DNA from: Escherichia coli
GTDB taxonomy: Bacteria > Pseudomonadota > Gammaproteobacteria > Enterobacterales > Enterobacteriaceae
NCBI RefSeq assembly: GCF_009931435.1
Contig: NZ_CP043414.1
DNA length: 64,000 bases
Reading direction: 5' to 3' (one strand)
In this document: positions 37,272-39,463 of the stretch, one piece after another
Numbering within the stretch: position 1 is the first letter of the stretch
How the letters are laid out: each line of letters begins with the position of its first letter
Program-made: the position numbers and the translations under genes
Notes under the pieces: generated by a model
What the model was told of the DNA's origin: nothing
Databases searched by the model: none
The model's input: the letters and a program-made list of their open reading frames with translations, nothing else

Positions 37272-38423
37272 ATGTCACTTGTCACCGATCTACCCGCTAT
37301 TTTCGATCAGTTCTCTGAAGCTCGCCAGAAAGGCTTTCTCACCGTCATGGATCTCAAGGAGCGCGGCATTCCGCTGGTTGGTACCTACTGTACTTTTATG
37401 CCGCAAGAGATCCCAATGGCAGCCGGTGCGGTTGTGGTTTCACTCTGTTCCACCTCTGATGAAACCATTGAAGAAGCGGAAAAAGACCTGCCGCGCAATC
37501 TCTGCCCGCTGATTAAAAGCAGCTATGGCTTCGGCAAAACCGATAAATGCCCCTACTTCTACTTTTCCGATCTGGTGGTGGGTGAAACCACCTGCGACGG
37601 CAAAAAGAAAATGTATGAATACATGGCAGAGTTTAAGCCCGTTCATGTGATGCAATTGCCCAACAGCATTAAGGACGATGCCTCGCGTGCATTATGGAAA
37701 GCTGAGATGCTGCGCTTACAAAAAGCGGTAGAAGAACGTTTTGGGCACGAGATTAGCGAAGATGCATTGCGCGACTCCATTGCGCTGAAAAACCGCGAAC
37801 GTCGCGCACTGGCCAATTTTTATCATCTTGGGCAGTTAAATCCTCCAGCGCTTAGCGGCAGCGACATTCTGAAAGTGGTCTACGGCGCAACCTTCCGTTT
37901 TGAAAAAGAAGCGTTGATCAATGAACTGGATGCAATGACCGCCCGCGTTCGTCAGCAGTGGGAAGAAGGCCAGCGACTGGACCCGCGTCCACGCATTTTA
38001 ATCACCGGCTGCCCAATTGGCGGCGCAGCAGAGAAAGTGGTGCGCGCGATTGAAGAGAATGGCGGCTGGGTTGTCGGTTATGAAAACTGCACCGGGGCGA
38101 AAGCGACCGAGCAATGCGTGGCAGAAACGGGCGATGTCTACGACGCGCTGGCGGATAAATATCTGGCGATTGGCTGCTCCTGTGTTTCGCCGAACGATCA
38201 GCGCCTGCAAATGCTCAGCCAGATGGTTGAAGAATATCAGGTCGATGGCGTAGTTGATGTGATTTTGCAGGCGTGCCATACCTACGCGGTGGAATCGCTG
38301 GCGATTAAACGTCATGTGCGTCAGCAGCACAACATTCCTTATATCGCTATTGAAACAGACTACTCCACCTCAGATGTCGGGCAGCTCAGCACCCGTGTCG
38401 CGGCCTTTATTGAGATGCTGTAA
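37272..38423 (+). CDS. yjiM: 2-hydroxyacyl-CoA dehydratase-family protein (HgdB-like)
   Basis: Start at ATG 37272 (MSLVTDLPAIF) with upstream GGGGAAGGAAAA; 383 aa. Confidence 0.8.
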   Translation: MSLVTDLPAIFDQFSEARQKGFLTVMDLKERGIPLVGTYCTFMPQEIPMAAGAVVVSLCSTSDETIEEAEKDLPRNLCPLIKSSYGFGKTDKCPYFYFSDLVVGETTCDGKKKMYEYMAEFKPVHVMQLPNSIKDDASRALWKAEMLRLQKAVEERFGHEISEDALRDSIALKNRERRALANFYHLGQLNPPALSGSDILKVVYGATFRFEKEALINELDAMTARVRQQWEEGQRLDPRPRILITGCPIGGAAEKVVRAIEENGGWVVGYENCTGAKATEQCVAETGDVYDALADKYLAIGCSCVSPNDQRLQMLSQMVEEYQVDGVVDVILQACHTYAVESLAIKRHVRQQHNIPYIAIETDYSTSDVGQLSTRVAAFIEML

Positions 38424-38432
38424 GGAGTGACA

Positions 38433-39200
38433 GTGGCATATTCGATTGGCATTGATTCCGGCTCAACCGCCACCAAAGGGATCTTACTGGCAGACGGCGT
38501 GATTACGCGCCGTTTCCTCGTTTCAACACCCTTTCGCCCGGCAACAGCAATTACTGAAGCCTGGGAAACTCTGCGCGAAGGGTTAGAAACAACGCCGTTT
38601 CTGACGCTCACCGGCTACGGGCGGCAACTGGTGGATTTTGCCGATAAACAGGTGACGGAAATCTCCTGTCACGGGCTGGGCGCACGTTTTCTTGCGCCAG
38701 CAACGCGCGGGGTAATCGACATCGGTGGTCAGGACAGCAAAGTGATTCAGCTTGATGACGACGGTAACCTGTGCGATTTCCTGATGAATGACAAATGCGC
38801 GGCGGGCACCGGGCGTTTCCTGGAGGTGATCTCGCGCACGCTTGGCACCAGCGTCGAGCAACTCGACAGCATTACCGAAAATGTCACGCCGCACGCCATC
38901 ACGAGTATGTGTACGGTGTTTGCCGAATCAGAAGTGATCAGCCTGCGCTCAGCGGGCGTCGCGCCAGAAGCGATTCTCGCTGGAGTGATTAACGCGATGG
39001 CGCGGCGGAGTGCCAATTTCATTGCTCGTCTCTCCTGTGAAGCGCCGATTCTGTTTACTGGTGGCGTTAGTCATTGCCAGACGTTTGCCCGGATGTTGGA
39101 AACTCACCTGGGAATGCCGGTAAATACCCATCCTGATGCGCAATTTGCTGGCGCAATTGGCGCAGCGGTAATTGGTCAACGAGTGAGAAAACGCCGATGA
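38433..39200 (+). CDS. yjiL: Dehydratase activator ATPase (BadF/BadG/BcrA/BcrD, HgdC-like)
   Basis: GTG 38433 six nt after AAGGAG; N-terminal IGIDSGSTATKG ATP-binding motif. Confidence 0.8.
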   Translation: MAYSIGIDSGSTATKGILLADGVITRRFLVSTPFRPATAITEAWETLREGLETTPFLTLTGYGRQLVDFADKQVTEISCHGLGARFLAPATRGVIDIGGQDSKVIQLDDDGNLCDFLMNDKCAAGTGRFLEVISRTLGTSVEQLDSITENVTPHAITSMCTVFAESEVISLRSAGVAPEAILAGVINAMARRSANFIARLSCEAPILFTGGVSHCQTFARMLETHLGMPVNTHPDAQFAGAIGAAVIGQRVRKRR

Positions 39201-39463
39201 AAGAGTTTTTATTTTTATTTCACTCCACGGTCGGCGTCATACAAACCCGCAAGGCGTTGCAGGCAGCGGGCATGACTTTTCGCGTCAGCGATATTCCCCG
39301 TGATTTACGCGGCGGCTGCGGGTTATGTATTTGGCTGACCTGTCTGCCCGGCGAGGAAATACAATGGGTGATCCCTGGGCAGACCGAAGCGATATATTGC
39401 CAGCAGGGCAGCAACTGGCAGTGCGTGGTGCATTACGACTCAGAAGCGTCAACCAGGCAATAA
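39197..39463 (+). CDS. DUF3343-like small protein, translationally coupled to yjiL
   Basis: ATGA overlap with yjiL stop; 88 aa; CxxC-like region (GGCGLCIWLTC). Confidence 0.55.
   Translation: MKEFLFLFHSTVGVIQTRKALQAAGMTFRVSDIPRDLRGGCGLCIWLTCLPGEEIQWVIPGQTEAIYCQQGSNWQCVVHYDSEASTRQ

Follow-up and report, generated by a model that had tools for sequence, protein, structure and literature searches.

Organization of the yjiM-yjiL-ytiA operon

We analyzed a 64,000-nucleotide stretch of Escherichia coli DNA (contig NZ_CP043414.1 of assembly GCF_009931435.1; this whole stretch is referred to as the window) with regard to three co-directional open reading frames (ORFs) at positions 37272–39463 (+), which correspond to yjiM, yjiL and ytiA. 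The original prediction had described them as a compact, translationally coupled operon resembling a 2-hydroxyacyl-CoA dehydratase system and its activator, and ORF calls in the window confirmed the layout. The yjiM gene (37272..38423 (+), 383 amino acids) begins with an ATG directly preceded by the ribosome-binding site GAAGGA. It is followed after a 9-nt gap by yjiL (38433..39200 (+), 255 amino acids), and the Shine-Dalgarno sequence of yjiL, AAGGAG (38422..38427 (+)), overlaps the yjiM stop codon. The third gene, ytiA (39197..39463 (+), 88 amino acids, ATG start), is joined to yjiL by an ATGA overlap (39197..39200 (+)) in which the yjiL stop codon and the ytiA start codon share sequence, an arrangement typical of translational coupling. 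This 4-nt overlap is repeated in most of the gammaproteobacterial loci described below. The yjiL start was placed at GTG 38433, where the AAGGAG box lies 5 nt upstream and the 255-residue product agrees with RefSeq; an alternative start, GTG 38427, was rejected as it does not have this spacing.

All three genes are annotated in RefSeq. The third is called by the Prokaryotic Genome Annotation Pipeline in every RefSeq genome examined, including that of strain K-12, in which it is named ytiA and encodes 85 amino acids; the remark that this small gene is easily missed is thus outdated. A 4-kb stretch around the operon was matched in 5386 of 5426 complete E. coli genomes, with 98.4% identity in strain N96. 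Annotated neighbors of the operon are mdtM, yjiN (DUF445), a pentapeptide-repeat gene, yjiK and yjiJ.

The region between yjiN and yjiM (37157..37271 (+)) is the expected place of a promoter or regulatory site. However, we detected no FNR-like site in it at up to two mismatches, no sigma-70-like site (the nearest weak match, 37083–37112, lies inside the 3' end of yjiN) and no RNA family in an Rfam scan. Likewise, FNR, sigma-70, terminator and Rfam scans gave nothing convincing either 5' of yjiM or 3' of ytiA. Previous work showed that the yjiM transcript goes up together with nrf, frd and nrdDG during oxygen depletion in O157 Sakai. The literature on "yjiL" deals with a yjiL-mdtM cluster and the uptake of proline-rich antimicrobial peptides, and offers no mechanism for this operon. 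A separate observation is that the FNR-like pattern TTGATNNNNATCAA (up to two mismatches) had 62 matches in the whole window, compared with 39.8 +/- 6.6 in shuffled sequences, and that 0 of 100 shuffles attained this number. None of the 62 matches is upstream of yjiM, and the excess may be just an effect of AT-rich islands.

YjiM and YjiL as a predicted double-cubane cluster protein and its ATPase

YjiM scored 528.7 bits against NF040772, the NCBIfam equivalog for double-cubane cluster proteins (DCCPs; FldB/C "cluster IV"), which is well over the cutoff of 350, and 405.7 bits against the Pfam HGD-D domain. In contrast, it reached 98.2 bits with the HadC equivalog (cutoff 700) and 19.5 bits with HadB (cutoff 750), and remained far under the cutoffs of the benzoyl-CoA reductase subunit models. 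Its best match in the PDB was 6eno/7yyl (E 1e-74), whereas HadC was found at only 4e-14. The view of YjiM as an HgdB-like dehydratase therefore has to be divided: membership in the HGD-D superfamily was supported, but a role as a dehydratase component was not.

The sequence motif of DCCPs contains seven cysteines, six of which are ligands of an [8Fe-9S] cluster, the seventh being an adjacent non-ligand residue, Cys94 (PMC7317905). The corresponding residues of YjiM (Cys40, 59, 78, 108, 273, 302 and 335) are invariant in an alignment that includes the 6ENO sequence, and so are Cys93 and Cys304. The spacings between the YjiM cysteines fall a few residues short of the motif ranges in the literature, and only a generic 4Fe-4S site was predicted for this protein. 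In class I DCCPs, an N-terminal extension narrows the substrate channel (PMC7317905). Residues 26–383 of YjiM were aligned to residues 62–421 of the 6eno/7yyl chain, and YjiM should thus be devoid of this extension; compared with the class I protein of Carboxydothermus hydrogenoformans, its N terminus is ~36 residues shorter and does not have the channel-closing helices. As judged from its sequence, YjiM is a class II DCCP, and its cluster is probably of the [8Fe-9S] type. Jeoung, Martins and Dobbek had already listed YjiM as a candidate class II DCCP and YjiL as its reductase (PMC7317905).

The assignment of YjiL to the BadF/BcrA/HgdC-type activator ATPases was borne out. It scored 363.8 bits against TIGR00241 (cutoff 125.4) and 259.4 bits against Pfam BcrAD_BadFG, and matched HadI (4eht, 1e-52), HgdC (1hux, 1.5e-52) and the DCCP reductase, DCCP-R (7yyl_E, 1e-45), with E-values in the range of about 1e-53 to 1e-45. 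The motif IGIDSGSTATKG that had been pointed out in YjiL was found, and its N terminus carries GIDSGST, the phosphate-binding motif of the acetate and sugar kinase/Hsc70/actin (ASKHA) fold. In DCCP-R, the cluster ligands are C115 and C152 (PMC9351452). YjiL contains Cys122 (in NDKCAAGTG) and Cys160 (in MCTVFAESE), and the segments with both cluster cysteines, NDKCAAGTGRF and CTVFAESEVIS, also align with HadI and HgdC. By these features, YjiL is an archerase-type ATPase/reductase with a predicted ASKHA fold and a putative bridging [4Fe-4S] cluster.

The yjiM-yjiL pair has the same two-gene architecture as the genes for DCCP and DCCP-R of C. hydrogenoformans (CHY_0487/0488; 6ENO, 7YYL): YjiM keeps the seven motif cysteines and YjiL keeps both DCCP-R cluster cysteines. 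A difference is that the E. coli operon adds a translationally coupled gene of the DUF3343 family, which was not mentioned in the DCCP literature we examined. We are highly confident of the identities of the three proteins as a DCCP, an archerase-type ATPase and a DUF3343 protein.

YtiA, a divergent member of the DUF3343 family

YtiA matched Pfam PF11823 (Se_S_carrier, formerly DUF3343) with 48.4 bits (cutoff 25). It had been described as an 88-residue protein with a CxxC motif. While C41-G-L-C44 is indeed present in the product, the motif as such is not conserved. Among 25 homologs, down to 13% identity, F8, C41 and G42 never change and P34 and R35 hardly ever do, whereas position 44 is occupied by Ser, Ala or Gly in Hafnia, Aeromonas, Morganella and most Firmicutes. 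Cys41-Gly42 is therefore the only invariant part of the motif. The first 47 residues show good conservation, unlike the C-terminal third, which varies. An AlphaFold2 model of YtiA (predicted local distance difference test score 90.8) has a ferredoxin-like fold with a C-terminal beta-hairpin and places Cys41, a candidate reactive residue, in the loop that connects strands 2 and 3. Structure searches revealed no close solved relative of YtiA and no solved structure for any member of the family. None of the fetched loci had a TGA selenocysteine codon at the position of the DUF3343 cysteine.

Conservation of the DUF3343 frame had been suggested as a check on the original prediction, and its outcome does not refute the prediction. 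The ytiA frame is intact directly 3' of yjiL in all 18 gammaproteobacterial loci with downstream sequence. Median dN/dS ratios of nonsynonymous to synonymous substitution rates (pairwise Nei-Gojobori) were ~0.055 for yjiM, ~0.12 for yjiL and ~0.28 for ytiA, values that are rough because dS was ~1.5 and hence near saturation; for ytiA, the ratio points to purifying selection. With a frame that stays open across 18 gammaproteobacterial species and is under purifying selection, ytiA is not a chance ORF.

DUF3343/Se_S_carrier proteins encoded in selenium (Se) loci (Lin et al. 2015) share with YtiA the single invariant cysteine and a size of 80–100 amino acids. Relatives of YtiA adjoin YedF, NifS/selenocysteine lyase-like genes and SelD, and YedF and TusA-type carriers may be regarded as functional analogs. 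However, YtiA belongs to a divergent branch of the family, with 48 bits compared with 59–90 bits for Firmicute members; its C-terminal beta-hairpin in the AlphaFold2 model is not aligned by Firmicute DUF3343 sequences, and in Gammaproteobacteria the gene is coupled to the DCCP-ATPase pair and not to YedF or a selenocysteine lyase. A single-sequence search of a representative library of 1.8 billion proteins with YtiA yielded 41 proteins, a small number that can be explained by the short length and divergence of the query. A naive iterative DUF3343 hidden Markov model run over six-frame ORFs was rejected, as it drifted to shadow ORFs in yjiM and yjiL, and the search was finally seeded with Pfam-confirmed sequences. 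Our literature search found no paper on E. coli ytiA (only an unrelated YtiA of B. subtilis) and no experiment on Se or sulfur binding or transfer by DUF3343 proteins.

It should be mentioned that the last ~25 codons of ytiA (about 39381–39463) occur as two alleles with a breakpoint within the gene, which we placed approximately at 39381..39407 (+) by comparison of the window with K-12. The two ytiA sequences are nearly identical to about nt 185–210 and strongly divergent beyond. The window-type allele (ending GSNWQCVVHYDSEASTRQ) was found in full in 639 genomes, and the K-12 type (ending DGVWRCIAHYGVSPR) in most others; most other E. coli genomes align only with nt 1–211 of the window-type allele. 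The number of genomes with the window-type allele is close to that of genomes covering the neighboring pentapeptide-repeat stretch (see below).

Gene neighborhoods of YjiM-type proteins in other bacteria

We scanned genomes, one for each species, with an alignment of DCCPs and obtained 80 loci coding for 383-residue YjiM-type proteins, including 19 from Gammaproteobacteria and 61 from Firmicutes (55–68% identity to E. coli YjiM). Neighboring genes were called and clustered, representatives were annotated with Pfam and NCBIfam, and genes related to Se or sulfur were counted within 6 kb. The order DCCP, ATPase, DUF3343 was kept in 18 of the 18 gammaproteobacterial loci that covered the region downstream of yjiL, with differing flanks. 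These belonged to Escherichia, Citrobacter, Klebsiella, Kosakonia, Cedecea, Trabulsiella, Hafnia, Morganella and Aeromonas. Two more distant contigs also carry this module, flanked by unrelated genes. Overall, the ATPase gene lies next to the DCCP gene or close to it in 57 of the 80 loci, and in 39 of the 61 from Firmicutes.

Among the 61 Firmicute loci, 16 contained at least one of the genes for SelD, YedF, NifS, YqeB, YqeC and DUF3343. The most frequent was YedF, which occurred in ten loci (TIGR03527, score/cutoff 191/110), followed by DUF3343 in nine (Pfam, 59–90 bits), NifS-type cysteine desulfurase in eight (TIGR03402, 568/531), SelD in six (TIGR00476, 396/125), YqeB in five (TIGR03309, 379/220) and YqeC in four (TIGR03172, 188/73). 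In addition, MocA-like proteins were found in five loci and xanthine dehydrogenase (XDH) in four, both under the curated cutoffs, and XdhC in four (Pfam XdhC domains). Loci with such a Se context had at least six gene orders and were scattered across a neighbor-joining tree of DCCPs. For example, we observed yqeC-yqeB-yedF-selD-DCCP-ATPase-mocA-...-XDH, DCCP-ATPase-NifS with a divergent DUF3343-YedF, DUF3343-NifS-YedF-ATPase-DCCP, and YedF-NifS-DUF3343-DCCP. In Clostridium intestinale, whose DCCP is one of the two Firmicute sequences closest to YjiM (68%), the operon reads DCCP-ATPase-SelD-YedF-DUF3343-YqeC-MocA with spacings of 9, 7, 16, 12, -11 and -8 nt. In a Dorea genome (L064), a 453-residue DCCP is encoded within a NifS-DCCP-DUF3343-ATPase operon. 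Three DUF3343 look-ups led to Se loci without a DCCP; among them were selD-selA-selB-LysR-NifS-DUF3343 and YedE-TusA-DUF3343 loci with Firmicute-type DUF3343 genes.

Several other features of these loci are worth recording. A PatB-family C-S lyase gene (TIGR04350, 489/340), coding for a further enzyme of sulfur/selenium amino acids, adjoins the YjiM-type DCCP in eight Firmicute loci (L032, L034, L035, L037, L059, L069, L071 and L077), often divergently, and in six of the eight there is no ATPase gene nearby. In three others (L051, L057 and L068), a thiamine salvage set (ThiD-like kinase, cytosine/purine-type permease, ThiM-like kinase and ThiE) lies directly 3' of DCCP and ATPase. YjiM itself is unusually conserved, with 85–89% identity across enterobacterial genera and 55–68% between E. 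coli and Clostridia, Lachnospiraceae and Enterococcus. In the neighbor-joining tree, the gammaproteobacterial clade is nested within Firmicute sequences, a topology that suggests horizontal transfer.

A possible role in selenium mobilization

DCCP-R reduces the double-cubane cluster only with MgATP, while dithionite and Ti(III) citrate fail (PMC9351452, PMC7317905). From this, we infer that YjiL drives electrons into an exceptionally low-potential cluster of YjiM. The only DCCP substrates known are artificial: acetylene, hydrazine and azide (PMC7317905, PMC9351452). DUF3343 was proposed to be a Se/sulfur chaperone with one conserved cysteine (Lin et al. 2015). In the STRING table of that study, the partners given for DUF3343, YedE and YedF in Slackia include a "CoA-substrate-specific enzyme activase" and HgdB-like subunits, on which the authors did not comment. 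A preprint by Haft (2022), in which NF040772 was built, reported that 955 of 970 DCCPs occur in SelD-positive genomes and raised a role with Se compounds or a Se-bridged cluster as possibilities; DUF3343 and carrier proteins were not mentioned. Papers on orphan SelD and Se-dependent molybdenum hydroxylases mention neither DCCP nor activase, and the DCCP structural papers do not mention Se (PMC9351452).

The operon as such is already known, being annotated in RefSeq and having YjiM and YjiL named in the literature; what is new is the recurrent link between one clade of DCCPs and Se genes. With gene order and coupling, family memberships, conserved cysteines, purifying selection and the recurrent Se neighborhood as its observed basis, we consider it somewhat more probable than its alternatives combined that the operon codes for a two-component, ATP-driven, very-low-potential reductase of the DCCP family together with a small thiol carrier. 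The dehydratase label should thus give way to one that names a class II double-cubane cluster reductase together with its ATPase and a putative thiol carrier of the DUF3343 family. Whether the system is linked to Se or sulfur trafficking is, in our estimate, an even question, and the specific reaction, release of selenide from carrier-bound Se(0), is put forward with less confidence than this link.

The proposed sequence of events is as follows. A YjiL homodimer with the ASKHA fold and a bridging [4Fe-4S] cluster would take up an electron from a cellular donor and, upon ATP hydrolysis, inject it into YjiM, which would hold an [8Fe-9S] double-cubane cluster on six cysteines with the seventh (Cys59) alongside. 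As YjiM does not have the channel-closing helices of class I proteins, its active site may be open to something larger than a small molecule, such as a protein loop. YtiA most likely would hold the substrate or product as a perselenide or persulfide on Cys41. The likeliest role would be reductive mobilization of Se, with sulfur less likely, for example, conversion of carrier-bound Se(0) into the selenide used by SelD. For Se(0)/HSe-, the redox potential is about -730 mV. Selenium is favored because reduction of Se(0) to selenide on a carrier would need a reductant of this kind and because the class II site appears to be open. We therefore suggest, tentatively and with the odds somewhat against it, that YjiM and YjiL reduce Se bound to Cys41 of YtiA (Se(0) or perselenide) to selenide for SelD, or else that the enzyme itself contains a Se-bridged double cubane.

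A number of points weigh against a role in Se metabolism. The redox argument depends on the above figure for the Se(0)/HSe- couple, for which our literature search found no source. We also found no experiment linking yjiML-ytiA to Se. The E. coli operon is not adjacent to selD, yedEF or yqeBC, and 45 of the 61 Firmicute loci had no Se/sulfur gene within 6 kb. DUF3343 proteins also occur in organisms lacking SelD, and no Se-specific subfamily could be defined (Lin et al. 2015); thus, the element may also be sulfur. DCCPs occur in far fewer genomes than SelD (4.7% versus 38%; Haft 2022), and the system is therefore no general requirement for Se use. Our sample of DUF3343 neighborhoods was not unbiased, as the best 120 matches of the YtiA profile search were mostly close enterobacterial relatives. 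Finally, binomial probabilities speak for the link, with 2e-7 for SelD in six loci and 8e-14 for YedF in ten (2e-3 and 2e-7, respectively, when only independent arrangements were counted), but they assume that a single-copy gene turns up by chance at a rate of 0.004 per locus, and the loci are phylogenetically related.

The operon is of interest with regard to the physiological function of DCCPs, the source of selenide for SelD in bacteria and the assembly of the labile Se cofactor. In the neighborhood data, the clade of DCCPs to which the E. coli enzyme belongs is tied to Se/sulfur carriers, SelD and YqeB/YqeC. The operon is also present in K-12, which makes the idea accessible to genetics. 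If true, it would provide the first physiological role for DCCPs and a new, genetically tractable step of Se trafficking in this organism; if the Se link is false, this is an ordinary annotated operon.

Alternative explanations

The function originally predicted, a 2-hydroxyacyl-CoA dehydratase-like radical enzyme (or a CoA-ester reductase) that YjiL activates and to which YtiA would be an unrelated accessory, appears improbable to us. HgdAB/HgdC, HadBC/HadI and FldBC/FldI do have in common with YjiM-YjiL the HGD-D superfamily fold and an ATP-dependent, electron-injecting activator, and activators of this group, HadI and HgdC, are the best solved relatives of YjiL. However, these dehydratases are heterodimers in which each subunit has one three-cysteine [4Fe-4S] cluster, and a CoA-transferase provides the CoA thioesters that they use as substrates. 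yjiM is a single HGD-D gene with no alpha/beta pair, and related loci are also single-copy for HGD-D, with a few exceptions that have a second DCCP. The protein has all seven double-cubane cysteines and not the three-cysteine pattern, passes the double-cubane equivalog while scoring far under the HadB, HadC and benzoyl-CoA reductase cutoffs, and finds its best solved relative in 6ENO. The E. coli flanks contain no CoA-transferase, acyl-CoA or amino acid fermentation genes, and no CoA-transferase or fermentation gene recurred among the annotated neighbor families of the 80 loci. Thus, the description as a 2-hydroxyacyl-CoA dehydratase system did not hold, and the more general one, a system of the HGD-D superfamily with its activator ATPase, stands.

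Two further explanations retain the Se genes and assign them other tasks. It is conceivable, though unlikely, that YtiA, along with NifS-like enzymes and SelD in other species, supplies the bridging atom of the double cubane, maybe yielding [8Fe-8S-Se], and that the substrate of the reductase is unrelated to Se trafficking. In several arrangements, such as that of the Dorea locus, the NifS equivalog and DUF3343 directly adjoin the DCCP; moreover, DCCP genomes are a subset of SelD genomes, which fits a dependence of DCCPs on SelD, and a Se-bridged cofactor was named as a formal possibility for proteins almost confined to SelD-positive genomes (Haft 2022). Yet the C. hydrogenoformans DCCP produced in E. 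coli was active and contained [8Fe-9S] with a sulfide bridge (PMC7317905), and cluster building would leave unexplained why DCCP and ATPase in Clostridium are placed between selD and mocA, next to yqeB/yqeC. This placement would instead suit a service of DCCP and ATPase to Se-dependent molybdenum hydroxylases, e.g. ATP-driven reductive insertion or repair of the labile Mo-Se ligand, with YtiA handing over Se: four to five Clostridium loci have YqeB, YqeC, MocA-like, XdhC and XDH genes on the flanks of the DCCP, and the Se-dependent molybdenum hydroxylase trait is also found in E. coli, at another place in the genome (Haft and Self 2008). We nevertheless give this possibility little credence, since most loci with a Se context have YedF, NifS or DUF3343 without XDH or YqeBC, the hydroxylase loci of E. 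faecalis and C. difficile were described without DCCP or activase, and the gammaproteobacterial operons do not have hydroxylase-type neighbors.

Other features of the window

Between ytiA and yjiK, the window contains a gene for a 696-residue pentapeptide-repeat protein (39771–41861 (+)) in a low-GC stretch (about 39600–42000; 30–38% GC compared with about 50–55% around it). K-12 lacks this stretch, which occurs in ~12% of complete E. coli genomes (the 4-kb query is covered in 633 of 5386). The similarity of the repeat region to PipB, PipB2 and SopA, which are type III effectors, stayed under their cutoffs, and the first ~350 residues had no Pfam match. The gene also contains 9- to 27-nt tandem repeats coding for ATS and proline-rich (IPxxP-type) runs.

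Further downstream, an intact gene for a 1746-residue inverse autotransporter of the intimin/invasin type occupies 44419–49659 (+), with an IAT_beta domain, eight Big_1 and seven Invasin_D3 stretches. The corresponding gene is split by an IS66 element in N96 and is absent from K-12 at that position. The sole Rfam match in the whole window was the SymR antitoxin RNA (28903–28979 (-), 88.9 bits), and at the matching position N96 has symE beside a type I restriction-modification system.

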